This document shows positions 1,769 to 61,065 of a stretch of 64,000 bases of DNA, piece by piece. Each line of letters begins with the position of its first letter. The first letter of the stretch is position 1. The position numbers and the translations under genes were made by a program. The stretch is from a virus, in the IMG/VR virus record IMGVR_UViG_3300044632_002025; one strand, given 5' to 3'. The notes under the pieces were generated by a model that saw nothing but the letters and a program-made list of their open reading frames with translations, had not been told where the DNA came from and made no database searches.

Positions 1769-1804
1769 ATTGTCAACCCCCAGTCTGCCCCGGTTAAGCT
1801 GGGG

Positions 1805-1996
1805 GGTGGTTCAAATGTACTAGACAAAGATGAACTGGGGGGGGTAGGGGGGGGTTCTCTTTTTTCAGGGCGACCCTTCCTATTCCATCCCCCCCAAGTT
1901 TGACAGGGCTTAACTGGGTTTGACCCCTAGACCCCCTTTTACCTTGGGTATGAGTATTTATACCTATCCCTAAAGACATAGTACGGGGTTTGACCC
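1805..1996 (-). repeat. repeat module M copy 1 (TATAAATA block, G/C-run box, TAGTACATTTG block)
   Basis: Its reverse complement is colinear with 3128-3255 and 60837-60990. 1861-1996 is a ~135-bp direct repeat of 2200-2336. Confidence 0.75.
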
Positions 1997-2173
1997 GACC
2001 AGACCCCGTTTAACCACTTCCACCCAACCTGACCCAGTTAGCTAAGGGTGGAAGTGGGGGGGTTCTTGGGTTTTTTTATGGAGACCTCCTTGATTCCACT
2101 TGGTCGGATTGGGTTGAATCTGGTTTGACCCTGCCAGCCCCAGCCTAAGCCAACCAGCCCCAGCCATTCCTTA

Positions 2174-2336
2174 CTAAGGGGGTAGGGGGGTTAGGTTGGT
2201 TTTTCAGGGCGACCCCCCTTATTTCATCCCTCCCAAGTTTAACAGGGCTTAACTGGGTTTGACCCCCCAGACCCCCTTTTACCTTGGGTATGAGTATTTA
2301 TACCTATTTCTAAAGACATAGTACGGGGTTTGACCC
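2174..2336 (-). repeat. repeat module M copy 2
   Basis: Direct repeat of copy 1 at 340-bp spacing. It includes ACCTTGGGTATGAGTATTTATACCTAT. Confidence 0.75.
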
Positions 2337-2497
2337 TGCCAGACCAGTCTTAGCCAACCAGTCCCAACTATTCTATACTAGGGGGGTAGGGGGGGTTAGG
2401 TTGGTTTTTATAACGGACAGTTATAACTCCGCACCTGGTCTGACCTGTTTTAGCCCGGTTCAACCCCAGTTTAATACATTTGTACTATATAAATCCA

Positions 2498-2536
2498 CAA
2501 CTGGGGGGGTTCGAGGCATTTTTCACCCCCCTAGTT
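2498..2536. repeat. G-run/C-run hairpin CAACTGGGGGGG...CCCCCCTAGTT
   Basis: Inverted arms with a 16-nt T-rich loop. Confidence 0.7.
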
Positions 2537-2560
2537 TCCCCTTTAGACTCAGATGAAACC

Positions 2561-2630
2561 CAGTCTGGCCATGTTCAACCCAGTCTGGTCATGTTCAACC
2601 CCGTCTGGCCATGCTTAACCCAGTCTGGTA
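2561..2630. repeat. 3.5 tandem copies of the 20-mer CAGTCTGGCCATGTTCAACC
   Basis: Exact 20-bp period (2561, 2581, 2601, 2621). Confidence 0.85.
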
Positions 2631-2650
2631 CAAGTGTACTAAGGGTCTAA

Positions 2651-2701
2651 CAAGTAGGGGGGTTACTTGAATCTGAAATTCTCTCCGAACCCCCCCACTT
2701 G
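2651..2701. repeat. G-run/C-run hairpin CAAGTAGGGGGGTT...AACCCCCCCACTTG
   Basis: 14-nt inverted arms with a 23-nt loop. Confidence 0.7.
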
Positions 2702-2840
2702 CCCCCTTAGACCCAGGTGAAACCTAGACAGGACAAGGTTTCCAGGTTGCCCCCTGACTTCCCCTATTAGGACTTAATTGCCGTTGTTGATGATGGTTAG
2801 ACCAAGTTTAAAATCTGTCAAAAGTTCAGTGTTTTAAGGG

Positions 2841-2869
2841 TTGCAAAATATTCACGCCCAAGTTATAAT
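2841..2869 (+). promoter_or_regulatory. strong sigma70-type promoter TTGCAA-N17-TATAAT
   Basis: Near-consensus hexamers. The spacer contains ACGCCCAA. No protein gene follows for ~600 nt. Confidence 0.6.
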
Positions 2870-2883
2870 AGGGAAAGAGTCTT

Positions 2884-3127
2884 GAGGTCAAATTATACTC
2901 TAGGACAAACATTTAACCTAACCATTTTTAGGAAATGTATAAATGGATACATTTTGGGTCAAACTGGGGCTTAAGGGACACCAACATCGTCAAACCATTC
3001 CAGCATGGGGTTTGCGGGGGATTTGCCAAGTCGAAACTGGAGTAGATAGGGCTAACTGGGAAATTGATGCCCTGGACATAAAAAACCAAAGCAACCCCCC
3101 CACTTGATGGGTTAAAACAGGGCTATA
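2884..3127 (+). repeat. conserved blocks i-iv shared with 60587-60836
   Basis: GAGGTCAAATTA.ACTCTAG.ACAAACATTT.ACCT; AAATGTATAA..G.TACATTTTGGGT; GGACA.CAACATCG.CAAACCATTCCAGCA.GGG..TTGCGGGG. Confidence 0.8.
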
Positions 3128-3345
3128 TCTTTAGAGGTAGGTATAAATACTCATACCTTGTACATAACGGTTAGTCGAGGGCAGTGCGGGGAGAATTAGT
3201 CCTCCCCTGTAGAAAAAACTGACCTACCCCCCCCCACCCCCCCTAGGAGATGAGAGACTGGTTAGTCGAAGGCAGTGCGGGGGGAATTAGGTCTCCCCCG
3301 TAGAAAAAAACTTATCCACCCCCCTACCTACCCCGTTGACGGGTT
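3128..3345 (+). repeat. repeat module M copy 3 plus two ~92-bp tandem subunits (GGCAGTGCGGGG...AGAAAAAAC...CCCCCC)
   Basis: CTTTAGAGGTAGGTATAAATACTCATACC, then subunits at 3170-3258 and 3262-3345. Confidence 0.75.
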
Positions 3346-3380
3346 AACCTAGAAACTCTACGGGGTCGGGACTTCAGTAA

Positions 3381-3422
3381 CAACTAGGGGGGTTATTTTA
3401 GGATTCAGACCCCCCCTAGTTG
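3381..3422. repeat. perfect hairpin CAACTAGGGGGG-N18-CCCCCCTAGTTG
   Basis: 12-nt perfect inverted arms. Confidence 0.8.
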
Positions 3423-3504: not shown

Positions 3505-4242
3505 TTACTCTAAACCAATTTGTTTGATTTTGCCAATTTCACAAGCCTTTTTGACAGCTTCAAATGGTTCTAAACCATCTTCAACAATAAATCTGGAAGC
3601 TAATTCTTCTGCAAACTTTAGCTCTCTTAAGGCTTCAGTAGGAATATGGTCACGGATAGCTCCTGATTCCTTAAGTTGATAGTGGTCTTTGGCTTGTTTT
3701 GATTTAACGCCTAAGACTAGCCCATTGAGATAGTCTGTAGAATTAGGATAGATGAACTTTTTGTAATTAGAACTTAGTTCTGGGTTATTTTCCAAATAAT
3801 ATTTGAAAGAGTCAGTTAGGGTGCGACGGGCGATTTTGCTTTCAACTCTGGTTTGGAGACGGTCATTGCGTTCTTCTTCAGTACGTTGAATATTGAAAGC
3901 ATGGTCTAAGCGACGTTCTAAAGATTCTACCAAACAGGAAAAAGCTACGGCTTGGCATTTTTTGTTGCCCAGTTGAGCATAAGCACTTACTATAGTACAA
4001 AAGGTCTCCATACCCATAAGTCTAGCTAATGCGTTAGTACCCTCTACATGAACCTTCTCAACAGAAAGATTGTCCAGTGCCAGTAAGGGTTTGGCGTATT
4101 TTTTACCGGTTGAGTCACCTATAAGAATATCTAATGCTTTGCAACCATTTTGGGACATAGCATAGCTACCATCAGGTAATTGATACCCTTCAAGTTGGAT
4201 GCCGCCTAATTTAATTGTGGCTTTTTTGGCTTTGTTGTTCAT
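3505..4242 (-). CDS. hypothetical DNA-binding/antirepressor-like protein
   Basis: ORF 3505-4287. Met16 (MNNKAKK, nt 4242) is preferred because the upstream codons overlap a promoter-like TATAAT. The family is not recognised. Confidence 0.45.
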   Translation of the reverse strand: MNNKAKKATIKLGGIQLEGYQLPDGSYAMSQNGCKALDILIGDSTGKKYAKPLLALDNLSVEKVHVEGTNALARLMGMETFCTIVSAYAQLGNKKCQAVAFSCLVESLERRLDHAFNIQRTEEERNDRLQTRVESKIARRTLTDSFKYYLENNPELSSNYKKFIYPNSTDYLNGLVLGVKSKQAKDHYQLKESGAIRDHIPTEALRELKFAEELASRFIVEDGLEPFEAVKKACEIGKIKQIGLE

Positions 4243-4344
4243 AGCTAAATTCCAGTCTGTGAAAAAGAATAACAGACCATAAATCAATTATAGCAATTTG
4301 TCAATGTTCAGACAATGTGAAAAATACGGAAATCCTGACCCCTG

Positions 4345-4362
4345 TTAGACAATAACGCCCAA
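4345..4362 (+). promoter_or_regulatory. start-associated motif TTAGACAATAACGCCCAA
   Basis: Identical 18-mer to 19943, 29651 and 33218(-). 40 nt upstream of ATG 4402. Confidence 0.55.
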
Positions 4363-4401
4363 AGCAGAAAATGTAAACCCAAGTGTACAATTAAAAGAGA
4401 T

Positions 4402-5019
4402 ATGACACCGGAAGAAATTAAACTATTATTAGAGGAATCGCAACAGGCGTTTCTATCCCAACTACAAGGGGAATTGGGAACGCTAAAGGCAGGCATCTTA
4501 AGCGAGGTAGACCGAAAAAACAGTGGATTGGCGAGTAGTCTACAAAAATCCTGGGATAAAAAAACCACTAAAGCACCCGAACCTGAGCCAGAATTAGAAG
4601 TGGAAGTGGAGACACCCAAACAGAAACTAAGTCTTCAAGCCCTACAGAAACAGATTGAAGATTTGAAAAAACAGTCAGAGGAAAAAGACAGAAAAATAGT
4701 TGCCAAAGAATTAGAATCCACATTAAATGCAACAATCTCCAAATTTAAACCGCTAGACTTAGGAATTGCGACCAAAGCCTTTAAGCTACAGTACGAGGAT
4801 AACTTAGTTTACGAGGATGGTGTAGCCTTTGTCAAAAATGGGGATAATGTGGAAAGTCTGGATGAGGCGTTAGGAAAATTCCTAGAAACTGATTTCGGTA
4901 AAAGTCTATTACCCCCGACATCCAAAGCTCGTGGTGCTGGATTAAAACCCCAAAACAGTAGCCCTGCCCCCACAGAGGGGAAACGGGACATTCTGGAAGA
5001 TTTGTTTATTGAGGATTAA
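4402..5019 (+). CDS. putative scaffolding protein
   Basis: Acidic, coiled-coil-like 205-aa protein immediately upstream of the capsid gene. Confidence 0.4.
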   Translation: MTPEEIKLLLEESQQAFLSQLQGELGTLKAGILSEVDRKNSGLASSLQKSWDKKTTKAPEPEPELEVEVETPKQKLSLQALQKQIEDLKKQSEEKDRKIVAKELESTLNATISKFKPLDLGIATKAFKLQYEDNLVYEDGVAFVKNGDNVESLDEALGKFLETDFGKSLLPPTSKARGAGLKPQNSSPAPTEGKRDILEDLFIED

Positions 5020-5040
5020 GTTAAGGTTAAGAGGGTTCTA

Positions 5041-5063
5041 AAACAGAACCCTCCCCCCCTACC
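5041..5063. terminator. hairpin GAGGGTTCT-aaaac-AGAACCCTC between convergent genes
   Basis: 9-bp stem with no clear T-run. Confidence 0.35.
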
Positions 5064-5376
5064 CCAAATTACCCCAAACGAGTCCATCATGGGTAGTCAG
5101 GCAATATAGAGCCTCGACTACCTTAATTAGTTTTAAAGTCAGAAACGGGGTAAGTTCGGGTAGTTTAGAGAGGGCAAACAAATCACGAATGATACCATCA
5201 AAAGCATTACAACGGATAACAGAAAGACTAACACAGATAGGGTTGTTATAGTCAGAAGAACCTAGTAGGGCAAGGCGTTCAGCCAATTCATAGGGGGCGG
5301 AGTCGAGACCAGAGATAAGGAAAGAAATATTGCAATGGGTCTCAAACTTTTCCAATTCCAACTGAAATATACGCAT
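5059..5376 (-). CDS. hypothetical protein
   Basis: ORF on the opposite strand between scaffold and capsid genes. Start taken at MRIFQLE. Confidence 0.3.
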   Translation of the reverse strand: MRIFQLELEKFETHCNISFLISGLDSAPYELAERLALLGSSDYNNPICVSLSVIRCNAFDGIIRDLFALSKLPELTPFLTLKLIKVVEALYCLTTHDGLVWGNLG

Positions 5377-5533
5377 CTTAACACCTACCAATATTTAGAC
5401 TTAGATTGAGCGGAGTAAAAAGGGGTTCGCCCATTTCCTATTATAGAGGCGAACTACGGCCTATTGAACAGTAGAAACCCTGTGTGGGATAAAACACAAA
5501 AGAATCTACTGAAAATAATAGGAAAATTAGAAA

Positions 5534-8563: not shown

Positions 8564-9520
8564 CTAAAGATGAGAATCTTGGTCAGAATCAAAAAAGTCC
8601 TTTGCTTCTAAATCGGAGTTAAATGGCTTAACCCATTGGGTAATTTTTTGGCGGATTTCAGTCCCATTAAGAATCCTGGTATCTTTTTCCATAGCAGAGT
8701 CACCAGACTCACCTGTAAAAAATTTACGGGCAGGAACCCAACCAATAAACCCGCCACACATCACAGATGCGTCGATGGCTACGGCAGTATGCTCTAAAGC
8801 TGACCAATGCTTTGAGCTAACTAGACGTAAAAATAGTTTAACATCCTTTTCCACATCCATATTCCCTTCGTGGTTTAGGTAAGACACTCTCGCACAACGA
8901 GAGGCTGACAGAGCAATGAGTAAAAGAGTATTACCTTTGTACAGTTCTCTTTCCTCATGGGTTACATAGGGCAGATGCAAACCACCATCTGATAGGATAT
9001 AAGCAGAACATTTGTGGTAAGCCTCAAGCATTAAGCGGGCTACTTTTCTAATCTCTGGCTGGGCTTTTTCAGAAGTACGAAGTTCAAAAAAGTTGAACCA
9101 TTGAGTGCCGGTCAGCACCACATCCACCATTTGAAAAGGCTCAGTAAGTCGGTTCACAATTTCTTTATGAACCCCAAGCAGGTTCAATAAATTAGCCCAA
9201 AACCGTTGGGAGTGCATGGAGCAGAACCATACAAGGTCAGCTAATTTAGCCTTTAGACCCGTCAGGGGCTTACCAGCTTGCATTCCTGACTTATTCGTAC
9301 CCCATTGGTCAGGGTGATAGGGATTCTCTACTAATTTTCGGTCTTTTTTCTTAATCGGAACAGCCCGATTCGACTCGGTATTAGAGGACAAAATACGGTG
9401 TTTATTGAGTTGAGCTAAGACAAATCGGGGAATACGAATTTGAAAAGTGGTAATAGTGTCGCCTGTGATGGAATTGACACTTTGTTCGATGACCTTAGCG
9501 TGGTATTGGGTAGGTTTCAA
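8564..9520 (-). CDS. thyX: flavin-dependent thymidylate synthase (ThyX-like)
   Basis: KHRILSSNTESNR fits the ThyX signature (R/K)HRxxSxxxxSxR. Confidence 0.65.
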   Translation of the reverse strand: MKPTQYHAKVIEQSVNSITGDTITTFQIRIPRFVLAQLNKHRILSSNTESNRAVPIKKKDRKLVENPYHPDQWGTNKSGMQAGKPLTGLKAKLADLVWFCSMHSQRFWANLLNLLGVHKEIVNRLTEPFQMVDVVLTGTQWFNFFELRTSEKAQPEIRKVARLMLEAYHKCSAYILSDGGLHLPYVTHEERELYKGNTLLLIALSASRCARVSYLNHEGNMDVEKDVKLFLRLVSSKHWSALEHTAVAIDASVMCGGFIGWVPARKFFTGESGDSAMEKDTRILNGTEIRQKITQWVKPFNSDLEAKDFFDSDQDSHL

Positions 9521-10044
9521 GAATTTGCTCCTAATTTCTTAATTTTTCTGACTTCTGACTTATAAGTTCGCAGGGTAAGACCCAGAGTTTTAGCTATTAC
9601 CTCTTGGGTAAGACCCATTAGACGTTTGCGGACAATTTGCTTTTGGAGGGGGGTGAGTTTTGACCAGAAGAGGTTCAGGGTCATTTGGTATTCAGTGGAA
9701 TCGACTAGGGATGCCATATTGTCTAGGGGAAAATCTCGAAGTTGGCATTCCATGACATAGGTTTTGTGCCGAATAAGGCGGAACCTTTTGCGAATATCCA
9801 ACCAGCAATAGCTGGTGAGCGTTCCTTTGTTGGGGTTCCAAGTCTTAAGTTTTTCTAGAACCAGACAAAGACCTTCCTGAAAGTAATCCTCTCCTTTGAC
9901 TGACGTATCACGCATAGCACGACGGATAGCGGGGATTTGGGATTTAACCAAATTTAGTTTAGACGTTTCACAGGCTTGTTGTTCGATGGTTAGATGACAG
10001 TATTCCATGACAGAGGTTTTGAATTTTAGACGGCTTAACCCCAC
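9517..10044 (-). CDS. phage sigma-70 family (ECF-like) factor
   Basis: Region-2-like YFQEGLCLVLEKLKTWNPNKGTLTSYCWLDIRKRF and region-4 HTH LTQEVIAKTLGLTLRTYKSEVRKIKKL. GTG start. Confidence 0.6.
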   Translation of the reverse strand: MGLSRLKFKTSVMEYCHLTIEQQACETSKLNLVKSQIPAIRRAMRDTSVKGEDYFQEGLCLVLEKLKTWNPNKGTLTSYCWLDIRKRFRLIRHKTYVMECQLRDFPLDNMASLVDSTEYQMTLNLFWSKLTPLQKQIVRKRLMGLTQEVIAKTLGLTLRTYKSEVRKIKKLGANS

Positions 10045-10188
10045 TCCACAAGCTAACTGCTCGTTTTACCCTAGTTAAAGGGGGTTTTAACCCTGATTGA
10101 TTAAGCTTGGTTCTCACTTAACCAGTTTTTTGTTGGGTTAACCCCAGTATAACAGAGAGTAGATTAGGTGTCAAGGGGTTTGAGAAAA
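10028..10188 (-). repeat. promoter-leader cassette copy 1 (drives the sigma/thyX operon)
   Basis: Its reverse complement is near-identical to 46430-46549 and 60334-60492. Confidence 0.85.
10146..10174 (-). promoter_or_regulatory. TTGACA-N17-TATACT promoter
   Basis: Reverse complement reads CCCCTTGACACCTAATCTACTCTCTGTTATACTGGGG. Confidence 0.7.
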
Positions 10189-10190
10189 AA

Positions 10191-10198
10191 TCGCCCAA
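10191..10198 (+). promoter_or_regulatory. start-associated motif core TCGCCCAA
   Basis: 36 nt upstream of the tape-measure ATG 10234. Confidence 0.35.
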
Positions 10199-10233
10199 AG
10201 CTAAGTTAGACCCCGCTTGGAGTATAACTGAGG

Positions 10234-33246: not shown

Positions 33247-33870
33247 TTGTTTATGAACACTGATAACTGGTTTATGCTCGTTCCTTCTAGAATAGCCTCC
33301 TCCAAATTAGGGCTTCACCCCCATACCCTTAGAAAATATTTTGATGACGGTTTGATTAAGGGGATTAAAAACCCCGCAGGTCAACGATATTACGATGTTG
33401 AATCCTATTTAGCCGACCCTCTTGACAAACCCTCAGTTATCTGTTATGCTAGGGTTAGTTCAAGAAAACAGTCTGCTGATTTGGCTAGACAGGTCGATTT
33501 CTTGAAATCAGTTTACCCCGATTCGGAGATTATTACAGATGTCGGTTCTGGACTTAACTTCAAAAGAAAAGGTATTCAAACCCTATTGGACAGATTACTC
33601 TCAGGAGATTAGTTCACTCTTGCTATCTCCCACCGAGATAGACTCTGCCGATTCGGATTTGAATTGTTCCAATACCTTTTCCTCAAGAACGGTGGAACAA
33701 TCGTGGTTCTCAACAATACTCAAACAAGTCCCGAACAAGAACTTACCCCCTACTTACTATCAATCCTCCATATTTTCAGTTGCAGAGTCTACGGACTTAG
33801 AAAAAACAACAAAAATATCGAGGAAGATAAGACTTTACCCCGACAAAACTCAACAAAATCTACTGAATGA
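33247..33870 (+). pseudogene. tnpA: IS607-type serine recombinase TnpA interrupted by one in-frame TAG (33610-33612)
   Basis: MerR-like HTH, catalytic YARVSSRKQ..DLARQ, then ...LLSGD*FTLAISHRDRLCRFGFE...SPEQEL...FSCRVYGLRK, all in a single frame. Confidence 0.8.
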
Positions 33871-34969
33871 GCTAATCTCTCAATATCGGTTTGTTTACAA
33901 TAAAACTGTAGATTTGCTGATAAACGGTAAAATTGGGGCTAATTGTGATTTAAAGACTAAGAAAGAAAGAAAAGGTTTGTCAAGCTATGACATCCGTGAC
34001 ACATTCTTTCAATTTTGGTTGGAGAAACACACTTGGTTAACCAATTGCATAAACATAAATACAGTAAAGGAGGCTATCACCGAAGCTATCAATGCCCAAC
34101 AAGTAGGGTTTGCCCAATTAAAAGCGGGGTTAGTTGAAAGGTTTGAGTTAAAATTCAAATCTAGAAAAAAGCCCCGACAAACTATCAACCTAAAAAAGGA
34201 AATACTCTCAGCTAAGGGAGTGTTAGCCCCCCGAAACCTAAAACTAGAAACCCCCCTAAAATCAGACACAAGGGGTAGTTTTGATGGTCTAACCCTCACA
34301 ACTACTGGGGGATTGTTCTACCTAATTTATACTGAAGATATTGCTAATAATCCAGAAGTCGAAAACCAAGACCTAAAGATTGTAGCATTAGACCCTGGTG
34401 TTAGAACTTTCCAAACTATTTTCTCGTCTAATGGGGTTTTCGGTAAATTTGGTCAAGAAGCCATTAAAAGATTGGCTAAACTATGCCATAAAGCAGACAA
34501 AATCCAATCTAAAATAGCTAAAACCAAAAACCAAAGTCGGATTAATTATCTAAGAATGTGGCAACAACGAACCACATTAAAGATAAGAAATCTGAGGAAA
34601 GAACTCCACCACAAAATTAGTAGATTTCTAGTAGATAACTTTGATGTAATCCTGCTACCCTGCTTTAACACCGGTGAAATGGTTAAAAAGAAGGACAGAA
34701 AAATCAATAAATCTACTACCCGTTCAATGTTAAATTTTGGACATTATGAGTTTAAGGAATTATTAAAGTTCAAAGCCAATAAATTTGGTAAAAAACTAAT
34801 AATAGTTTCTGAGGCTTATACCTCCAAAACCGTATCATGGACAGGGGAAATAATAGCTAATCTAGGTGGGAGGAAAGTAATCAAATCTCAGAGTAACGAA
34901 AGTTTAGACAGAGATTTAAATGGAGCCAGAGGAATCCTAATAAAATTCTTAACTGAGCTACCCCAATAG
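33539..34969 (+). CDS. tnpB: TnpB (OrfB) RuvC-like transposon-associated protein; true start uncertain (GTG 33692 possible)
   Basis: RKIRLYPDKTQQNLLNELISQYRFVYNK, ALDPGVRTF (RuvC-I Asp), AYTSKT, DRDLNGARGI (RuvC-III Asp). Confidence 0.8.
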   Translation: MSVLDLTSKEKVFKPYWTDYSQEISSLLLSPTEIDSADSDLNCSNTFSSRTVEQSWFSTILKQVPNKNLPPTYYQSSIFSVAESTDLEKTTKISRKIRLYPDKTQQNLLNELISQYRFVYNKTVDLLINGKIGANCDLKTKKERKGLSSYDIRDTFFQFWLEKHTWLTNCININTVKEAITEAINAQQVGFAQLKAGLVERFELKFKSRKKPRQTINLKKEILSAKGVLAPRNLKLETPLKSDTRGSFDGLTLTTTGGLFYLIYTEDIANNPEVENQDLKIVALDPGVRTFQTIFSSNGVFGKFGQEAIKRLAKLCHKADKIQSKIAKTKNQSRINYLRMWQQRTTLKIRNLRKELHHKISRFLVDNFDVILLPCFNTGEMVKKKDRKINKSTTRSMLNFGHYEFKELLKFKANKFGKKLIIVSEAYTSKTVSWTGEIIANLGGRKVIKSQSNESLDRDLNGARGILIKFLTELPQ

Positions 34970-41770: not shown

Positions 41771-41783
41771 TACTTTTAGGCAC

Positions 41784-41808
41784 AAAAAAACCACCGGTTA
41801 AGGTGGTT
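41784..41808 (-). terminator. terminator AACCACC-ttaacc-GGTGGTT-T7 (minus strand)
   Basis: Variant of the 42198 and 43014 hairpins. Confidence 0.6.
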
Positions 41809-41831
41809 AAATTTACCGACATCCAAAATCA

Positions 41832-42158: not shown

Positions 42159-42185
42159 GGCTACATGGGTTAAATGTACTTTCTT

Positions 42186-42222
42186 ATTATAGCAACAAAA
42201 AAACCACCCGTCAAGGTGGTTA
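42186..42222 (-). promoter_or_regulatory. fused terminator-promoter cassette (hairpin ACCACC/GGTGGT-T7 whose loop is the -35 TTGACG; -10 TATAAT)
   Basis: Reverse complement reads AACCACCTTGACGGGTGGTTTTTTTGTTGCTATAAT. Confidence 0.6.
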
Positions 42223-42240
42223 ATGTTTTATTTTGTATCG

Positions 42241-42972: not shown

Positions 42973-43001
42973 AGTTTAGTCCAGAAATAGGTATCCCGTT
43001 T

Positions 43002-43038
43002 ATTATAGCAACAAAAAAACCACCCGTCAAGGTGGTTT
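43002..43038 (-). promoter_or_regulatory. fused terminator-promoter cassette, second identical copy
   Basis: Same 35-nt sequence as 42186-42222, between the phoH and KilA-N genes. Confidence 0.6.
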
Positions 43039-43065
43039 AATATTTAATTCAGAAGTAACTTTAGA

Positions 43066-46233: not shown

Positions 46234-46497
46234 ATGTACATTATAATTACACCGTGCGAAACATATCAAACCCCAGTTTTGACAGAGGTTGAGCAACAAG
46301 GTCTGGAAAGTGGTGAGTACACCATACTCAAGGTAATCTTCGATGGCTCTGATGAAGTAGTCCATCTAGATTGGACGGTACTCCAGGATTGGATTGAACA
46401 GAAAAAACAGGAAAAAAGAAATAACCTAAACCCCTTGACATCTAATCTACTCTCTGTTATACTGGGGTTATTAACCCAACAAAAACTGGTTAAGTGA
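46234..46497 (+). CDS. hypothetical protein; its last ~25 codons are a translated promoter cassette
   Basis: Intact ORF. The 3' end coincides with cassette copy 2. Confidence 0.35.
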   Translation: MYIIITPCETYQTPVLTEVEQQGLESGEYTILKVIFDGSDEVVHLDWTVLQDWIEQKKQEKRNNLNPLTSNLLSVILGLLTQQKLVK

Positions 46498-46549
46498 GAA
46501 CCAAGCTTAATCAATCAGGGTTAAACCCCCTTTAACTAGGGTAAAGCGG
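46430..46549 (+). repeat. promoter-leader cassette copy 2 (promoter 46435-46463)
   Basis: CCCCTTGACATCTAATCTACTCTCTGTTATACTGGGGTTA..ACCCAACAAAAACTGGTTAAGTGAGAACCAAGCTTAATCAATCAGGGTTAAACCCCCTTTAACTAGGGTAAA. Confidence 0.85.
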
Positions 46550-46584
46550 CAGAGAAAAGCCTAAAAAGAATTTTCTCAAACCCC

Positions 46585-46613
46585 TTGACACCTAATATAC
46601 CTTCTGTTATACT
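46585..46613 (+). promoter_or_regulatory. promoter TTGACA-N17-TATACT
   Basis: CCCCTTGACACCTAATATACCTTCTGTTATACTAGGG. Confidence 0.65.
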
Positions 46614-46660: not shown

Positions 46661-47575
46661 ATGACAACCTCAACTGCACAAGTACCCTCCGTAGTTTCCT
46701 TTGATGAAGTAATTTCCTTATACTCTGGTAAGCTTTGGGACAAGGTTTATACCAATGTTCCAAACTCTAAGATTGGACGTACCTTAACCACCCAACTCAG
46801 TTACATTTTAAACCAAGTTGGTGAAAAGTTCGACCCAGATGGCTCCATTCTGACAGTAAAAGCGGAAAATGGGGTGTTCAAAGCACTCTATAGCCCCACC
46901 CTTTATAAAGTTTCTAACACATTATTGCGGGGTTCGGCATACGCAAAAGCAAACCCCAGCTTGTTTGAAGACGAACCTGCTGAAAACGGTGAAACTGGTT
47001 ACAACCTAGGAGTTCGTTTCAGTCAAACCTTGTTCGTACCCTACATGGCTTTCGCCAATATCGAAGGCATCGCATCCATGCCTTCCGACAGTGGCATCAC
47101 CATTGTCCTTCCCGAAAGCGAAGCGTTCCCCGAAGGTTTGACCTTTGACTTGACCGCACGTTTTACTGAAGCCGACATGGAAAAACGTAAAAACGATTCC
47201 ATAAAAATGCGTCGGGCATTCACAAAAGGTACTTTCTTTACTTATTTGGCTGAACCCCCGACTGGTGGTGGTTCTGCTACACCCCTCCGTGATTTGGAAG
47301 ACGGTACAGAATACACTATCGTAGGGTATGAATTTAAAGAAAGTGACAATGGTGGATTTTTCACCCTCACCACTGAAGATGGTATGAAGATTATGTCCAA
47401 CAAAGCCATTGCCCGTACTCTTGAGGCTGGCCCGGTAGTCACCCCTACTAAAACCTGCTTACTCCGAGTAGTAAACAAAACAAAAATGGCAAATGGAAAT
47501 ACTAAGGTTAATGCGTCTCTAGTCGTACCCTCTGAGAATTTCCCCAGCCGTGGAGACATCGACCTAGATTGGTAG
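46661..47575 (+). CDS. hypothetical protein (304 aa)
   Basis: Intact ORF behind two tandem promoters. Confidence 0.45.
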   Translation: MTTSTAQVPSVVSFDEVISLYSGKLWDKVYTNVPNSKIGRTLTTQLSYILNQVGEKFDPDGSILTVKAENGVFKALYSPTLYKVSNTLLRGSAYAKANPSLFEDEPAENGETGYNLGVRFSQTLFVPYMAFANIEGIASMPSDSGITIVLPESEAFPEGLTFDLTARFTEADMEKRKNDSIKMRRAFTKGTFFTYLAEPPTGGGSATPLRDLEDGTEYTIVGYEFKESDNGGFFTLTTEDGMKIMSNKAIARTLEAGPVVTPTKTCLLRVVNKTKMANGNTKVNASLVVPSENFPSRGDIDLDW

Positions 47576-51349: not shown

Positions 51350-52657
51350 ATGTTAGGAACAGCCAACAAAATATTAAAAACTTCCACAGTAGAAGTCGAA
51401 ATGGACTTCAGAGACTTTAATAACGTCTCTATCGAAGCTTTAGAGGCGGAAATTGTGGATACCGACACTTTTATCGCCGTTCACGAAGAATTTAAACTTT
51501 TTGTAGAGAAAGTTGTCACACCCACTGGCTATACCAGCCGTCATTTCGTGGACATCTATAAACTCCTAAAAAAACTTTTACCCGTTTATAACCCCCCGAA
51601 AACTAAGGCTACTTCCAATAAGGGTCTACAAGCCGCTTACAACGCCGCTATGGGTTCCGTATTAACCACTATGGTTAACACTCCCTTCAAAAAGAAAACA
51701 GAAGCCGTAAAACTAACTGGCTCTCAGACTGTTGCGGCGGGTAGTGCTGTCCTATTACAATTACAAATTGCAATGGATTTTACCCACGAAATTTTTCATG
51801 ATTTAGTTAGAAGTGTTGAGAAAGGAGAGCCTAGACTTAGACCTAAAGAGGTTCGTAGTGCGGATGATTTAATCCGTAATGAGGATTTTTTTGCTTACTC
51901 TTGCATCCCCCCTGAAGATGTAGATGGGAGAAAGGCCTATATTGACCAGACTATGGCTCACTGGCGTGAACACACCAACACCTATCTTGACTATATGTTC
52001 TCCATTCTAGAGTTCAGCGAAAATAAATTTAACCGCCCCTGTGGTGAACTTGCCGAGGCTCTCCATACGTTTAAGGCTGAACTTGATAAGAAGGGTATCT
52101 TTAGAGCTTGGGTTAATTTCTATGATAACGTAGGAGCCGTTAAAACCTACTCTAGTATGGGCATACCAATTGAACACGAGGGTTGTTGGGGCAATCAATT
52201 GGGGAGAGACCTTGATAACAATCCCCTTTCCATTACTATGCTTTTAGAAAAGATGTTCCCATGGCAAGTAGGAAAATCCTACAGTAGAAGGCAAATAAAT
52301 GCTTGGAACAAAGGCAAATGTGAGGTTCTTTTTTACGAGTGGGTTTCCCAATTCGTTTATTCTGACGACCCATTAAACTACGCTCCTTACTCTTTAAAGC
52401 TTAGAAAACCCCCCAAATCTGATAAGGATATTTTTAAAGCCGCTTGGCAGAATCTTTATAATATCCAGAGACAAGTCCTAAACAAGATGGAGCAAAAAGT
52501 AAAAGCCACTTACGTCCGTGTTTCTGCTGACTTCTCTAATCTCACTTCCTCAGTCAAAGAAGGGTTCGCTAAATTCTGCGGTGGTCAAGTGGTAAATTTC
52601 TCCGTCCTAGAAACAGAAGACTCAGGACTAGAACCAAACTTCACCATGTCAACGTGA
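51350..52657 (+). CDS. hypothetical protein (435 aa)
   Basis: Intact ORF. Confidence 0.45.
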   Translation: MLGTANKILKTSTVEVEMDFRDFNNVSIEALEAEIVDTDTFIAVHEEFKLFVEKVVTPTGYTSRHFVDIYKLLKKLLPVYNPPKTKATSNKGLQAAYNAAMGSVLTTMVNTPFKKKTEAVKLTGSQTVAAGSAVLLQLQIAMDFTHEIFHDLVRSVEKGEPRLRPKEVRSADDLIRNEDFFAYSCIPPEDVDGRKAYIDQTMAHWREHTNTYLDYMFSILEFSENKFNRPCGELAEALHTFKAELDKKGIFRAWVNFYDNVGAVKTYSSMGIPIEHEGCWGNQLGRDLDNNPLSITMLLEKMFPWQVGKSYSRRQINAWNKGKCEVLFYEWVSQFVYSDDPLNYAPYSLKLRKPPKSDKDIFKAAWQNLYNIQRQVLNKMEQKVKATYVRVSADFSNLTSSVKEGFAKFCGGQVVNFSVLETEDSGLEPNFTMST

Positions 52658-52682
52658 CATCTAATCTACTCTCTGTTATACT
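52654..52682 (+). promoter_or_regulatory. cassette-type promoter GTGACA-N17-TATACT with no downstream plus-strand gene
   Basis: ACGTGACATCTAATCTACTCTCTGTTATACTGGGTTTAACCCGACAAAAACTG. Faces the 3' end of the convergent ORF 52818-53216. Confidence 0.45.
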
Positions 52683-53300: not shown

Positions 53301-53311
53301 TATACGCCCAA
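53301..53311 (+). promoter_or_regulatory. start-associated motif core TATACGCCCAA
   Basis: 36 nt upstream of ATG 53347. Confidence 0.45.
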
Positions 53312-53346
53312 TGTCCTGTACAGAAGCATCATTCCCCCAATTTATA

Positions 53347-56300
53347 ATGGCCAGACGCAAAGGTAGAAAATTATACTCCCCTAATTCCCCCCAAGACCCC
53401 AGGAAATCCCGTGGCGGTAATATTAAAGATGGTATGGGGGTTGTTAAAGGTACTAATGTTAAAGGGGAAGCTTTTTCCTTTGACCCGTCTAAGCACAAAC
53501 GAGACCCCTTGACTGGTAAATGGGCTACTAAACCTGATGTGGTTAAGCCCCAAAAAGATAAGAAAAAAGCCACTAAACCCACTTCTTCCGAGGCTAAAAA
53601 AACTAAACCATCCTCCCCCTTCGCCAAATTTAGACAAAGGGTTCGTGATGCTTTAAAACAACAATTAATTAATTACGCAAAAAATAAATCAGATAAGTCT
53701 AAATCCACACCGTCTAAACCTGATTCTGTGTCAACTGTGCCAGTTAATGCTAAACCTATTGAGAAAAAGAATTTTACCCTGGATGACTATACTCAAAGAG
53801 GACAAGAAATTAGCTCTAAATATGGGTTGAGTGATAATAAGTTCTTAGGCAGACTGGCGAAGTTAATAGACAAATTACTCAGTTTCCAAGAAAAACCGTC
53901 ATTAACGCCTTCTGACATGGAGGAACTAAAAAAAATTAATGACGATATATTGGAGACACAAAAGAAGGCCTATGAAGACTTTGAGAAAAAAGTTGAACAA
54001 CTTTTAGACGACTATAGAGAAAATGCTTCAGATTTAGACATGGATAAAGTAATTTTAAAGACTAGATTTGTAAGAAATGGTTTTCCAAGAGATTTAAATG
54101 AGGACGTTGATATGGTGAGGGAAGCCTATAAAGATTTTCACTATCTCACTAACGGCAATATTATAGGCTTTCCCAATTTGTTGGATGTTAACAATGAAGG
54201 TAATAGCTATGCCGTTTACCCTAATAAACCCGCACAAAGTTCAATAGTCAGCATTGGGACATCTGGACAGGGGGAAGTTCCTCTGAGGCAGGCGACCTTC
54301 CATGAATTGGCGCACCTAGTTGAGCTTCATGTTCCTGGTCTCAAAGAAGCGTCTCTAGAGTTCCTGAAAAAACATAGTTACACTGGAACTCTAGAGAATT
54401 TTGATTACCTGGGTGTACCTATCTCAGGATATAAGGGGGACTTTATAGATGAATATGTGGGTAGATTTTACGTCCAAAATTCAGCCACAGAGGTTTTATC
54501 TACGGGATTTGAACGTTTAAGTAATCCAGATAGCGCATTTAAACTTTTTGTAAATTCTAATCATCACTTTAATTATATTCTTGGTGCGCTTGACCGTGTT
54601 AACTCTACTAGAAATTCTGAATCTTACCGGCTACCAAATAAATCTGTTAGGAAAATACCAAATAAATCTGCTGAGGAAATACCAAATAAATCTGCTGAGG
54701 AAATACCAAATAAATCTGCTGAGGCAAAGAATTTGACCCTAGATAACTACACTCAAAGAGGACAAGAAATTAGCTCTAAATATGGGTTGAACGATACTAA
54801 AACACTAGGAAAACTCCAAGAACTAAGTGGTATACTAAGAGAATTTAACACTAAAATAATGGGTATGTATGACGACCCTACTTTAACCGACTCCGACAGA
54901 GAAGAAGTTATACGTCAATTTGACGAGGTTTTCAAAAAACACAAAAATCTTGAAAAGAAATTTAGGGCAAAATTCGAGAAAAATGTTCAAAATCTTCTAG
55001 AATCCTACAAAGAAGCTAGTAAAGATTTAGACTTAGAGAAACTTTTGGAAAATTCTAAATTCACATTGTATGGGCAAGAACTAGATAAATCAGATAGGAA
55101 CGTGGATTTAGTGAAAGAAAGTGTTAAAGATTTCCACTCTCTTACTAAGGGGTTTCTGGGAGAATTGGTTCCTATGATTGACGTAGACAGAAATGGTTCT
55201 AGTTACGTCCGCTACCATCCAGATAAGCCAGAAAAATTGACACATATTAGAATCGGGGCTATTGGACTCGGTGATGAAGTATTTAAACTTCAGACCTTCC
55301 ATCAAATGGCTCACATTCTGGAATCCCACATACCTGGACTCCTAAAAGCATCTATGGAGTTCCTGAAAAAACATAGTTATTCGGGGCAAGAGGAAGACAT
55401 CGAACACAGGGGTATGACCTACAGAGGGTATAAAGGTGATTTTATAAATAATTATGTGGGTAGAACATACAACAAAGGGGTATCAGCCACAGAGGTTATA
55501 TCTACAGGTTTTGAAAGACTTCGTAACCCTACAGACGCATTTACTCTCTACACAGAATCAAACCATCACTTTAATTTTATTCTTGGGGTTCTAGATAGTA
55601 TTAACCAGACTGAGCCGCCTAAAACAAAATTAATGAGTAGCTTAACTCAAAAAAACTTAGACCCTAAACCAGAACCCGCAGAGCCAAAACCAACTACTCC
55701 TAAACAGGTTTCCAAAGAGTACACTGATACTATTAATTCTGCAAAATCTAAAATCTCCCAGTATAAACTGGATAGACTTGTCAAAGTTTTTGAAACTCAA
55801 GATGCCCAAATCAATGCGGAGCTAAAATCTTTAGACCCTAAAAACCCTGAAGACGTTGAAAAAGCCCAAAAACTTTTTGCTAGAAAACGTAAACTGAAGC
55901 AGTCTCTTGATACTTACCTTGAGAAACAGATGAACTTATTGTATCAAGAACTGCTTGATAATAATAATTCTGTAAACTCTGACCTCCTAGTGGGACAAAC
56001 TAATTTTCAAATAGGTGAATACACTAAAAATCTTAAACCAGCCAATACTGAAGACCCTATCTATAAAACTCACACTCCTGTAATTAGTAAGGCTTTGGCT
56101 GAATTTCATAAACTTACAGGGGGGATTCTGAACAACTTAGTCCCCCGTATAGGACTCAGCGAAAAAAAAAGAAGTTGGGCTGGATTCGATGCAAAAGAAC
56201 CCCAAAAAAATAATTATCTTTCTATATCTGTAACCCGTTCCAATGATGTTAAACCCTCAGTTTTTCATGAAGCGGCACACCTGTTGGAAGGGTCTGACCC

Positions 56301-56610
56301 TAAATTTGCCAACTTAGCTAAGGAATTTTTAGCTAAAAATAGAACTTCAGATGAACTTAAGCAAATAAAGGGTTATCCTGCTGGCGAAGTGGCTTACCCT
56401 GGAAACTGGGTTCACCCCTATGTGGGTAAAAATTATGAAAATGCCCCCTCCACAGAAGTAATTTCAATGGGTATAGAACGATTTGCTAGTCCTAGAGATA
56501 TGGCGGAATTTTATTTTAAAGATAAGGAACATTTTGCTCTAACTTTGGGGATTATAGAATCCCTTAAAGTCCCTGAACATCTAAAACCAAAACCTGCTAC
56601 AATATATTAG
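53347..56610 (+). CDS. large basic-N-terminus protein with three ~320-aa internal repeats, each with an HExxH-type motif
   Basis: HELAH (54301-54315), HQMAH (55300-55314), HEAAH (56266-56280), each followed by ..GYKGDF..YVGR.Y....ATEV(L/I)S.G.ER. The first track Met overlaps the upstream motif. Confidence 0.6.
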   Translation: MARRKGRKLYSPNSPQDPRKSRGGNIKDGMGVVKGTNVKGEAFSFDPSKHKRDPLTGKWATKPDVVKPQKDKKKATKPTSSEAKKTKPSSPFAKFRQRVRDALKQQLINYAKNKSDKSKSTPSKPDSVSTVPVNAKPIEKKNFTLDDYTQRGQEISSKYGLSDNKFLGRLAKLIDKLLSFQEKPSLTPSDMEELKKINDDILETQKKAYEDFEKKVEQLLDDYRENASDLDMDKVILKTRFVRNGFPRDLNEDVDMVREAYKDFHYLTNGNIIGFPNLLDVNNEGNSYAVYPNKPAQSSIVSIGTSGQGEVPLRQATFHELAHLVELHVPGLKEASLEFLKKHSYTGTLENFDYLGVPISGYKGDFIDEYVGRFYVQNSATEVLSTGFERLSNPDSAFKLFVNSNHHFNYILGALDRVNSTRNSESYRLPNKSVRKIPNKSAEEIPNKSAEEIPNKSAEAKNLTLDNYTQRGQEISSKYGLNDTKTLGKLQELSGILREFNTKIMGMYDDPTLTDSDREEVIRQFDEVFKKHKNLEKKFRAKFEKNVQNLLESYKEASKDLDLEKLLENSKFTLYGQELDKSDRNVDLVKESVKDFHSLTKGFLGELVPMIDVDRNGSSYVRYHPDKPEKLTHIRIGAIGLGDEVFKLQTFHQMAHILESHIPGLLKASMEFLKKHSYSGQEEDIEHRGMTYRGYKGDFINNYVGRTYNKGVSATEVISTGFERLRNPTDAFTLYTESNHHFNFILGVLDSINQTEPPKTKLMSSLTQKNLDPKPEPAEPKPTTPKQVSKEYTDTINSAKSKISQYKLDRLVKVFETQDAQINAELKSLDPKNPEDVEKAQKLFARKRKLKQSLDTYLEKQMNLLYQELLDNNNSVNSDLLVGQTNFQIGEYTKNLKPANTEDPIYKTHTPVISKALAEFHKLTGGILNNLVPRIGLSEKKRSWAGFDAKEPQKNNYLSISVTRSNDVKPSVFHEAAHLLEGSDPKFANLAKEFLAKNRTSDELKQIKGYPAGEVAYPGNWVHPYVGKNYENAPSTEVISMGIERFASPRDMAEFYFKDKEHFALTLGIIESLKVPEHLKPKPATIY
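54634..54729 (+). repeat. four tandem 24-bp repeats (IPNKSAEE linker)
   Basis: CCAAATAAATCTGCTGAGGAAATA starts at 54634, 54658, 54682 and 54706. Confidence 0.9.
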
Positions 56611-57150: not shown

Positions 57151-57202
57151 ACTTGTCCCCGCACTTCGCTTAGTTACCAGTAGTACACTTGTTCAAAAAA
57201 AG

Positions 57203-57245
57203 ATTCTCCCAGACAGTTGACATTTCTGGGAGAATATCATAGGAT
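57203..57245 (+). promoter_or_regulatory. promoter TTGACA-N17-TAGGAT bracketed by an 11-bp perfect inverted repeat ATTCTCCCAGA/TCTGGGAGAAT
   Basis: The inverted-repeat arms at 57203-57213 and 57225-57235 flank the -35. Confidence 0.6.
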
Positions 57246-57380
57246 AGAATCAAGCAAACAAACACGGAAAACAGGATGACGGGTAACGCTAAACAACCAA
57301 TCGAAACAACACAAATTCCTGTATCCGACGCTATAATTAGTTATCAGTTATCAACTATTTGGGACTAACAAAAAAAAAAA

Positions 57381-58373: not shown

Positions 58374-58423
58374 TAATCAGTTATCAGTAGTACACTTGTT
58401 CAAAAAAAGATTCTCTCATACAC

Positions 58424-58452
58424 TTGACATTTCTGGGAGAATCGCATAAGAT
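58424..58452 (+). promoter_or_regulatory. promoter TTGACA-N17-TAAGAT (paralogue of 57217-57245; left operator arm degenerate)
   Basis: ATTCTCTCATA replaces ATTCTCCCAGA. Confidence 0.55.
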
Positions 58453-58522
58453 AGCATCAGGCAAACAAACACGGAAAACAAGATTACGGGTAACGATAAA
58501 CAACCAGTCGAACGCTATAATC

Positions 58523-58550
58523 AGTTATCAGTTATCAGTTATCAGTTATC
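58523..58550. repeat. (AGTTATC)x4 heptamer repeat in the 5'UTR
   Basis: Also x2 at 57339-57352 and x3 at 59210-59230. Confidence 0.9.
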
Positions 58551-58580
58551 AACTATTTGGGACTAACAAAAAAAAAAAAA

Positions 58581-59207: not shown

Positions 59208-59232
59208 TTAGTTATCAGTTATCAGTTATCAG
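59206..59232. repeat. (AGTTATC)x3 heptamer repeat
   Basis: Direct reading of the sequence. Confidence 0.9.
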
Positions 59233-59710: not shown

Positions 59711-59808
59711 CAAGTGGGGGGGGTTCAAGGCTTTTTTCAAAATACCTAGACTACTACCAATACTTTTTAGCCCCAGCAATGGACATAACCAATAACTAAT
59801 TTGACCAG

Positions 59809-59829
59809 CCCCTTCCAAAGGGGTTTTTT
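59809..59829 (+). terminator. rho-independent terminator CCCCTT-cca-AAGGGG-T6
   Basis: Paralogue of 1748-1768. Confidence 0.7.
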
Positions 59830-59857
59830 ATTGTCCGTTATTTGACGGGGTTGGGAC

Positions 59858-60101: not shown

Positions 60102-60107
60102 CAAATA

Positions 60108-60333: not shown

Positions 60334-60492
60334 ACCCCTTGACATTTAATCTACTCTCTGTTATACTGGGGTTAACCCAACAAAAACTGGTTAAGTGAGA
60401 ACCAAGCTTAATCAATCAAGGTTAAACCCCCTTTAACTAGGGTAAAACGGGCAGTTAGCTCGTGTTAGCTTGTGGAGTGGGGTTAAGCCGTC
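60334..60492 (+). repeat. promoter-leader cassette copy 3 (promoter 60339-60367), including a copy of the first 5 codons of the sigma gene
   Basis: Near-identical to the reverse complement of 10028-10188, with a 9-10-nt internal duplication. Confidence 0.85.
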
Positions 60493-60506
60493 TTACCCCC
60501 CTGTGA
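60477..60506 (+). pseudogene. 9-codon remnant of the sigma-factor gene start (GTG GGG TTA AGC CGT ...TGA)
   Basis: MGLSR matches the first five codons of ORF 9517-10044, then diverges to a stop. Confidence 0.6.
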
Positions 60507-60586
60507 AACAGGAAATTAATGTTAATGAAAGTTAACATTTTTTATAACGGGAGAAAATCCCCAGTCAAGTTTGGTGCAAGAGTTCT

Positions 60587-60836
60587 GAGGTCAAATTAAA
60601 CTCTAGAACAAACATTTGACCTGCCAAGAAATAATAAATGTATAATTTGGTACATTTTGGGTTAATTGGTTTAAATTGGTTTAAAGGACATCAACATCGC
60701 CAAACCATTCCAGCACGGGCGTTGCGGGGATTCCCATAATGGAAACCATCTACGGCAGGGTCAAACCGGAGGGACAGGGTCAGACATAGAAAAACTGGGA
60801 TAACCCCCCCAGTTGATAGGTTTTCTTAGAGCTATG
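60587..60836 (+). repeat. conserved blocks i-iv, paralogue of 2884-3127
   Basis: Colinear at an offset of ~57.70-57.71 kb with substitutions and small indels. Confidence 0.8.
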
Positions 60837-61065
60837 CCTTTAGAAATAAGTATAAATACTCATACCCTGTTTGAACTTGGTTTAATGGGGGAAGTGAGGG
60901 GGTAGCCCAAGAAAAAACCAAGAACCCCCCCCTACCTACCCCCCTAATTGCTGGTGAAACTTTATGTCTAGTACATTTGTATTACACCCTATCTCGACTG
61001 GGGCAGTGCGGGGGAAAGCAAGGGTCAACCAAGAAAAAACCGACCTACCCCCTACCCACTTGACA
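60837..61065 (+). repeat. repeat module M copy 4 plus one GGCAGTGCGGGG subunit
   Basis: CTTTAGAAATAAGTATAAATACTCATACCC ... GAAAAAACCAAGAACCCCCCCCTACCTACCCCCC ... GTCTAGTACATTTG. Confidence 0.75.

Follow-up and report, generated by a model that had tools for sequence, protein, structure and literature searches.

In phage lambda, nutL and nutR (boxA plus boxB, with the N protein) are RNA sites that lie just past early promoters, occur in more than one copy and stand ahead of terminator-like hairpins. In phage HK022, the structured putL and putR RNAs likewise follow directly on early promoters, and they act in cis on the transcribing polymerase with no particular type of downstream gene needed. 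The Bacillus subtilis trp and hut leaders (with TRAP and HutP, respectively) carry a repeated short motif in the 5' leader, followed by a hairpin and U-run before the genes. At the level of genomes, mobile or reused promoters have been described in prokaryotes, where highly similar promoters are found upstream of non-homologous genes in one genome (PMC3575422), and the Microcystis phage Mic1 carries promoter-containing repeats in 10 and 8 copies (PMC7156551). Here we describe a repeated cassette in a 64,000-nt viral sequence, IMG/VR record IMGVR_UViG_3300044632_002025 (the whole of which we call the window), in which a promoter is joined, where transcription starts, to a structured and conserved RNA ~180 nt long (hereafter the unit). 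By position and logic, the unit is closest to lambda nut, HK022 put and the attenuation leaders that depend on a protein; as a genomic phenomenon, the cassette is closest to the reused promoters (PMC3575422) and the Mic1 promoter repeats (PMC7156551).

Its position apart, the unit qualifies for none of these known kinds. As with lambda nut, it begins where the promoters of its family start transcription and is repeated, with three copies in the window and 3–6 in relatives; it is, however, ~180 nt long with six helices (P0–P5), compared with ~35 nt for nut. Helix P3 recalls boxB in its 5-bp G+C stem and 5-nt loop, but the loop AGUUA is not GNRA-like. About 10 nt before P3 lies CCCUUUAACUA, invariant except for one C/U site, which resembles the core CUUUAAC of the Escherichia coli rrn boxA; we treat this as a lead only. 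No N-like protein was recognised by Pfam in the 27 window open reading frames (ORFs) that were scanned, such proteins being hard to detect. The HK022 put RNAs are ~70 nt long with two stem-loops, and their likeness to the unit is one of position alone. Action in cis of the put kind would nonetheless explain a unit standing before unrelated genes and non-coding DNA, and we infer purely by analogy that the unit might act on RNA polymerase as put does. Where TRAP- and HutP-type leaders have (G/U)AG repeats, the 183-nt RNA has GUUA(A/G) eight times (a count reached in 0 of 2000 shuffles); the spacing of this motif is irregular (10–40 nt), in difference from those leaders, and no alternative antiterminator was found in the folds. 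Compared with the reused promoters and the Mic1 repeats, the repeat described here takes in a long RNA whose secondary structure shows evidence of selection, and it has no sequence homology to the Mic1 repeats. Mic1 (L022/L023; L numbers denote related loci) has a three-copy unit of its own at 22274(+), 73054(-) and 89358(-), with a promoter CTTGACATTTTGTTTAATCCTATGTTATGCT and a ~110-nt conserved transcript in long non-coding regions, which is analogous to the window element with no detectable homology.

A promoter family with a long conserved leader

The three copies lie at 10190–10028 on the minus strand (copy 1) and at 46428–46549 (copy 2) and 60323–60493 (copy 3) on the plus strand, in agreement with the places and sequence given in an earlier note on this DNA. 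The stretch common to copies 1 and 3 covers 10190–10028 and 60323–60493, with an RNA part ~89% identical including a 10-nt indel, and copy 2 is 97% identical to copy 3 across 79 nt (repeat family D13). A repeat finder recovered these pairs too; their arms are 64, 67, 53 and 30 nt long and match at 87–100%. In the three-way alignment, the promoter is identical (CCCCTTGACA, a 17-nt spacer with TGT, then TATACT) and the sequence downstream is common to the copies. These are not assembly artefacts, the outcome that the note had named as one that would refute it: the same junctions are present in independent IMG/VR, GenBank whole-genome shotgun and Logan assemblies.

The promoter core, CCCTTGACA-N13-CTGTTATACT, was found at 10 sites in the window against 0.02 expected, which is far beyond chance, so that the cassette represents those members of a 10-member promoter family that have a long leader. 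The note's count of three thus stands for the long leader and falls short for the promoter part. The cassette promoter is a near-consensus host sigma-70-type promoter with a UP-like A/T tract, TTGACA, TGn and TATACT. In copy 1 (10146..10177, minus strand) it reads CCC-TTGACA (TTGACA at 10174–10169), a 17-nt spacer with TGn, and TATACT at 10151–10146, and agrees with 11 of the 12 consensus positions in addition to the extended -10. The promoter of copy 2 (46432..46463, plus strand) has TTGACA at 46435–46440 and TATACT at 46458–46463, and that of copy 3 (60336..60367, plus strand) has them at 60339–60344 and 60362–60367. The first ~20 transcribed bases, GGGTTAACCCAACAAAAAC, are common to five family promoters; these include a second promoter 3' of copy 2 (46582..46613, plus strand), which keeps no more than this part of the leader before ORF 46661–47575, and, as an example of promoters with only this part, that at 52651..52682 (plus strand). 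Other family promoters are found at 33419, 46178, 47889, 49195 and 51291. The genes downstream of the 10 sites differ, both in the window and in relatives, so that near-identical promoters stand before non-homologous genes.

Among the window's three copies, only copy 3 is complete. Its RNA unit of 183 nt (60368..60550, plus strand; 206 bits; 5' end deduced from the -10 box) contains helices P0–P5 and thus extends beyond position 60492, where the note had ended it, to include a hairpin and U-run. The copy 1 leader (10028..10145, minus strand; 106.9 bits by cmsearch) is a 3'-truncated unit with P0–P3 and the 5' arm and loop of P4; it is without one of two tandem GTTAGCYYGT units, the 3' arm of P4 and P5, and continues via 10027–10009 into a sigma-like gene. 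Copy 2 holds a leader fragment of the first ~85 nt (46464..46549, plus strand; 80.5 bits) with P0, P1, P2, the 5' arm of P3 and a TTA insertion, and both its truncation and the promoter that follows are kept in four relatives. Full-length versions of the unit are ~181 nt long, beginning with the base that follows TATACT and running to ..A(A/T)AACGG, and end in the hairpin AAUGUUAA-UGAAAG-UUAACAUU with its U-run. The promoter of copy 2 lies inside the 3' end of ORF 46234–46497 and the leader is followed by the promoter at 46582–46613 instead of a gene, both as previously noted. This ORF (plus strand, 87 aa) extends across the copy 2 promoter as well as 34 nt of the leader, contains an in-frame 3-nt indel in relatives, and may be a real gene with a C-terminus encoded by the cassette.

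Pattern scans, nhmmer and a covariance model recovered ~24 distinct versions from at least 10 IMG/VR contigs, one GenBank metagenome and Logan assemblies, the relatives searched being pattern-seeded loci. Three copies were present in the closest relative, six in one 58.9-kb contig and at least four in one 32-kb contig. Without exception, the unit begins where a family promoter starts transcription, and it leads on into a downstream feature, which can be the sigma gene (window copy 1, L008–L010, L015), a 78-aa ORF and then sigma (L017), a 149-aa ORF (L001/L016), a gamma-type DNA polymerase with its ATG 14 nt past the U-run (L005/L020), a 90-aa ORF with P5 absent (L018a), an 82-aa ORF ahead of an nrdA region with its ATG 11 nt past the unit (L055/L056), another promoter directly after the unit (L057) or non-coding DNA (window copy 3, L021a, L054). 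The same 3' boundary (..AACGG) was observed in at least seven different contexts. The cassettes are a portable family in Mic1-related Microcystis siphophages, not a sigma-specific leader.

The RNA unit is absent from Rfam and previously undescribed. Searching the whole window with Rfam 15 gave a tRNA as the sole match at the gathering threshold, and at E ≤ 10 the region 60300–60700 gave only mir-50 and a partial IMES-4 match on P5, which at 21.7 bits fell short of the cutoff of 48. The invariant 20-mer had no exact match in 185,579 species genomes, cultured phages gave no DNA match for the copy 1/sigma region, and we found no paper in the literature describing the element.

Beyond copy 3 lies a non-coding segment of ~300 nt (60576..60875, plus strand) that is ~80% identical to 2876–3170. 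The latter has its own TTGCAA-17-TATAAT promoter (2841–2869); at copy 3 the promoter of this type is destroyed, and the cassette ends exactly at its former -35. Each of the two plus-strand paralogues starts with AAGAGTYYTGAGGTCAAATTAWACTCT and holds a hairpin AAATGTAT..ATACATTTT, and together they are probably the non-coding RNA to which the earlier note referred.

Structure and conservation of the RNA unit

RNAalifold and single-sequence folds concur on the six helices, given here in the coordinates of copy 3. P0 (60368–60378/60419–60429) pairs the 5' sequence GGGUUAACCC with GGGUUAAACCC and encloses P1 (60388–60396/60406–60414; UGGUUAAGU/GCUUAAUCA). These are followed by P2, a short hairpin CCU/AGG (60430–60432/60439–60441), P3 with the core CGGGC-AGUUA-GCCCG (60443–60452/60458–60467) and P4, a long imperfect hairpin (60469–60487/60492–60512). 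The unit closes with P5 (60518..60543, plus strand), an AU-rich hairpin with U6 that forms a weak terminator-like end.

Across 17 distinct sequences, standard pairs fill 96.4% of pair cells, and compensatory double changes occur in three pairs (G-C to A-U in P1, C-G to U-A at the base of P4 and A-U to G-C at its apex). The values for pairing and compensation were reached by only 0–2 of 500 shuffles, and slid controls paired at 27–49%. By inspection, P0 shows the series A-U, A.C (L055) and G-C (L057), and pairing in P3 is kept across the variants GCCCG, GCUCG and GCUUG as well as CGAGC/GCTTG in copy 1. Folding z-scores for the sense strand ranged from -1.4 to -4.2 and were always below those of the antisense strand which, with the many G.U pairs, places the structure on the transcribed strand. 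The compensatory changes, the G.U pairs and the lower sense-strand energies uphold the earlier proposal of an untranslated leader that is structured at the RNA level; the two hairpins by which it had been described fared less well. In TGGTT/AACCA, direct inspection revealed an A.C mismatch in L055/L057 and a C-to-A change in L043. An arm of this hairpin pairs instead with GCTTAATCA, that pairing has a compensatory change, and the substitutions that break TGGTT/AACCA are those compensated in P1. GTTAAA-CCCCC-TTTAAC is not among the conserved helices, with no covariation in GTTAAA/TTTAAC.

In L055/L057, inspection of the alignments gave 2–3 changes in the ~60 nt of the central block, ~6 in the 17 nt of the promoter spacer and ~14 in the first 60 nt, and the P2–P3 central block is almost invariant. 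With compensatory changes across P0–P4 and this near-invariant core, the unit has the multi-helix domain that characterises the sensor part of riboswitches and attenuators. We consider it very probable that the unit represents a selected structured RNA family.

The closing hairpin is a weaker feature. P5 has 9 bp with one G-C pair, a folding energy of -6.7 kcal/mol and a tail of U4–U7, and was not called by a consensus terminator scan because of that single G-C pair. For the G+C-rich terminators of this phage, the values are -10 to -12 kcal/mol. These canonical intrinsic terminators, our yardstick for P5, consist of a G+C-rich hairpin and a T7 run, AAACCACCTTGACGGGTGGTTTTTTT, with minus-strand copies at 41771–41820, 42184–42233 and 43000–43049. 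Where a gene follows closely, P5 is degraded: it is nearly abolished (-1.3 kcal/mol) ahead of the DNA polymerase, L055 has lost it by deletion and the L018b version has no U-run. Coding potential was rejected for the unit, which has no ATG in its first 150 nt. We do not count a frame beginning MLMKVNIF.. inside P5 as a gene: its length (11–26 codons) and C-terminus vary by context, and its conservation is explained by that of the nucleotides.

The sigma gene, the host and other features of the window

The sigma-like gene next to copy 1 (Sigma70 region 4; 9517..10008, minus strand) is in the same operon as thyX (8564..9520, minus strand), which overlaps its stop by 4 nt. Its start is ATG 10008, GTG 10044 being just the mechanical start of the ORF, and this placement draws on a comparison with relatives. 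In L008/L010, a complete unit lies upstream of sigma, with an in-frame TAG three codons before the ATG (MEY..) and with the bases that copy 3 shares with the mechanical ORF sitting ~120 nt upstream of that ATG. The sigma gene of L011 carries no element and is served by a TTGACA/TATAAT promoter of its own, ~15 nt ahead of this same ATG. Lastly, the Mic1 sigma homologue, behind a short leader, aligns from residue 1 of the ATG-start protein. The note had read copy 3 as retaining the sigma start codon and five codons, but with the conserved start at ATG 10008 this fails: the sequence common to copy 3 and the GTG 10044 ORF, GTGGGGTTAAGCCGTCT, is the 5' arm and loop of P4. Since the shared bases belong to P4, it is copy 1 that is the derived, truncated form, and this 3'-truncated unit is now the 5' untranslated region (UTR) of the sigma/thyX operon.

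The window encodes tape-measure and tail proteins, portal, large terminase, primase, the sigma-like protein, ThyX, flap endonuclease, muramidase and TnpB, with a G+C content of ~41%. Its terminase is 68.5% identical to that of Mic1, the order tape measure/sigma-like/thyX is the same as in Mic1_35–37, and a spacer from a Microcystis type I-D CRISPR array matches window 57179–57218 (38/40) and L021 (39/40). Terminase, gene order and spacer together indicate that the host is Microcystis and that the phage is an uncultivated relative of Mic1.

The cassettes duplicate and reshuffle by recombination at the promoter repeats. When compared with its closest relative, L009, the window is without 471 bp that include a gene of 108 aa (window 10190–10215 vs. 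L009 2330–2840). In L009, these bases have the cassette promoter on one side and, on the other, the promoter that diverges from the tape-measure gene. The junction of this deletion consists of 22 nt, TTTTTCTCAAACCCCTTGACA, common to two family promoters, by which the two homology blocks overlap. Two genes of this 108-aa type are present in L011, which has no cassette. In L008/L010, the inserted block is flanked by T(T/C)TAGACCCAC direct repeats, and several short-read assemblies end inside the element. The promoter-to-promoter deletion and the broken assemblies bear out the suggestion that the repeats serve as recombination substrates; the inversions or deletions between copies that were to be looked for were not seen, the order and spacing of the three copies being the same in the closest relative. 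As further observations on these junctions, the cassette upstream of sigma in L008/L010 (2640–3000) is flanked by direct repeats TTTTAGACCCAC and TTCTAGACCCAC, and the left junction, TAGACCCAC followed by CTTTGTTG, recurs in at least six loci.

Several other features of the window deserve mention. At 61060–61292 (plus strand), a perfect TTGACA-18-TATAAT promoter (61060–61089) precedes a tRNA-like RNA of ~199 nt with an acceptor stem GCUAUUG/CAAUAGC, a D-arm-like hairpin, a 7-bp stem with a 7-nt loop, an insert of ~110 nt and the T-arm GCGGG-UUCAAUU-CCCGU; neither ARAGORN nor Rfam called it, and only the T-arm touches the transfer-messenger RNA (tmRNA) model. Two long non-coding regions rich in G-runs and C-runs, 1777–3400 and 59700–61060, have consensus promoters at 60073, 61060 and 61315 and short direct and inverted repeats common to both window ends (D9, D15, D18, D19, I10–I25); they could be an origin or packaging region. 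The tnpB gene (IS605 OrfB-type RNA-guided nuclease; 33539–34969, plus strand) is preceded by a family-like promoter (33419–33450). In the related phage L013, tnpB is at a different site (4010–5449), which indicates that the tnpB element is mobile within the phage group. We rejected the cassette as a TnpB omega-RNA or IS200-IS605 end, since BLAST, nhmmer and the covariance model never placed it beside tnpB of the window or L013. Tandem duplicate FGE-sulfatase-domain genes (57172–58340 and 58379–59207) have upstream regions 86–90% identical, and this upstream repeat is the target of the Microcystis type I-D spacer (57179–57218, 58386–58415). Runs of the heptamer ATCAGTT are present at 57328–57358, 58512–58556 and 59199–59229; this heptamer is repeated in Mic1 and widespread in the genome of M. 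aeruginosa NIES-843 (PMC7156551). Finally, the 1099-aa ORF 53311–56610 contains internal duplications of ~1 kb (D6, D7, D14) and, at 54632–54727, four tandem 24-nt repeats TACCAAATAAATCTGCTGAGGAAA.

Possible modes of action and their meaning

Our favoured reading, held tentatively, is that the RNA may be a cis-acting leader for read-through or attenuation. It would form the 5' part of early transcripts and act on them in cis, with the conserved core as the handle for one factor, either a protein that recognises the P2–P3 block or the GUUA motifs, or RNA polymerase. This factor would set the share of transcription that passes the weak P5 hairpin and U-run into the region downstream, by a logic of attenuation or antitermination, and several early units (sigma/thyX, DNA polymerase, small ORFs and the non-coding unit) would be governed together. 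That copy 3 takes the place of the non-coding unit's lost promoter counts in favour of placement in cis.

A number of points weigh against the reading of the unit as a selected leader of this kind. We infer its 5' end, termination at P5 and read-through alike, and no antiterminator or RNA-binding protein was recognised by Pfam in the 27 window ORFs scanned. A mutually exclusive antiterminator pairing was not seen in the minimum free energy and consensus folds, which were examined by eye with no dedicated search. In L057 the unit is followed by a consensus promoter, and ~500 nt of non-coding DNA follow copy 3 (window, L021), arrangements that resemble a stand-alone small RNA (sRNA). Copy 2, which is without the conserved core, may be a relic. 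BLAST, nhmmer and the covariance model found no homologue of the element in Mic1 or, within the 20 kb around sigma that were examined, in a relative whose sigma gene is 90% identical in DNA; the element is thus dispensable for sigma expression. With regard to selection, the element is 94–96% identical among close relatives, whose neighbouring genes are 96–98% identical, so that conservation at this range is uninformative. All the compensatory double changes come from one diverged lineage (L055/L056/L057), which leaves the evidence for structure good but not overwhelming.

It is possible, if rather unlikely, that the unit is instead a stand-alone, trans-acting, multi-copy sRNA, a moron-like assembly of promoter, RNA and terminator that would be abundant early in infection and could act on a host or phage protein as its sponge or decoy, via the GUUA(A/G) motifs and core, the gene-fused copies being secondary. 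Copy 3, L021a, L054 and L057 have no following ORF and keep the best P5 hairpin, with U5–U7, and in L057 a new promoter follows directly; here the unit has both its own promoter and its own terminator, as copies 1 and 2 and the ORF-abutting units do not. The 3–6 copies per genome behind consensus promoters, the eight GUUA(A/G) motifs in 183 nt and the unrelated three-copy promoter and ~110-nt unit of Mic1 in its long non-coding regions agree with an sRNA as well. However, in most copies the unit directly forms the 5' UTR of an ORF and leaves no space for another promoter (the ATG lies 11–14 nt past the U-run), P5 with its one G-C pair is lost or degraded in several copies, and a search with the 20-mer gave no host homologue. 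A related and slightly more doubtful proposal is that of a new class of phage RNA which acts alone, is made from 3–6 early consensus promoters and captures a factor by its P2–P3 core and eight GUUA(A/G) motifs. The factor may be RNA polymerase, in which case the RNA would be a put-like, factor-independent antiterminator for terminator-proof early transcription, or it may be a host RNA-binding or defence protein titrated by a decoy; Microcystis is known for its very many defence systems. If this were true, a single portable module of RNA would change the programme of several transcription units simultaneously.

A constitutive 5' UTR module with no switch, which would stabilise early transcripts against host RNases or provide a processing site and travel with the promoter as a ready-made expression cassette, seems unlikely. 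It would account for a unit that opens at the transcription start with the 5'-terminal helix P0, for its use before unrelated genes and a non-coding unit, and for the unit end ..AACGG(A)G, which in L055 places a GGAG 9 nt ahead of the ATG. Yet stabilisers usually need just a 5' hairpin, whereas here an internal block of 60 nt is the most conserved part, and family promoters work with leaders truncated at +20. In a further reading, the RNA would have no function of its own and be a passive hitchhiker, carried at varying lengths by promoters that spread by recombination; the ladder of 3' end points (+20, +85, +125, +150, +181), the promoter-to-promoter deletion, close relatives too alike to reveal selection and the documented reuse of promoters before unrelated genes in prokaryotes (PMC3575422) are all compatible with this. 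Against it stand four compensatory double substitutions in four helix segments, the near-invariant core in the L055/L057 lineage and a 3' boundary, ..AACGG, that is the same in at least seven contexts, and we regard it as improbable. The conserved internal core and the compensatory changes make both a plain stabilising 5' UTR and a hitchhiker less likely.

The version offered in the earlier note, a riboregulator or shared site tying sigma expression to the non-coding RNA, with copy 3 as a duplicate of the sigma 5' region, appears very improbable. Copy 1 is indeed the 5' UTR of sigma/thyX and copy 3 reads into the pair of non-coding paralogues, but the sigma start is ATG 10008 and copy 1 is the truncated copy. 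A coordination specific to sigma and the non-coding RNA did not hold up either: relatives have the element before DNA polymerase, small ORFs and non-coding DNA, and the sigma genes of L011 and Mic1 are without it.

Least credible of all is an RNA anti-CRISPR that would mimic a solitary repeat of the Microcystis type I-D system in the manner of the Racrs (PMC10651486), to which the unit is similar as a small phage non-coding RNA with its own promoter, in a phage group targeted by host I-D spacers: although bases 45–81 align with the repeat DR1b (CAAT.AA..TTAAACCC...CTAGGG..AAAC; score 23, p ~0.002 vs. shuffles; repeat sequences from PMC4428289), ~5 unrelated places in the window score at least 23 against DR1b, the loop is 5 nt longer than that of the repeat, the 8-nt 3' handle is not conserved (A/G/deletion) and Racrs mimic their repeat closely (PMC10651486). 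The alignment being no better than the window background, we rejected a CRISPR-repeat mimic.

For annotation, the analysis corrects the sigma start and explains why short-read assemblies break at the element. The cassettes also illustrate clearly how promoters and their leaders move together as one unit and bring about rearrangement of genomes. Microcystis phages attract study as natural agents of control over toxic blooms, yet, to our knowledge, almost nothing is known of how their genes are regulated. An RNA module joined to the strongest host-type promoters and found before a sigma factor, a DNA polymerase and other early units offers a testable handle on early gene control in these phages.

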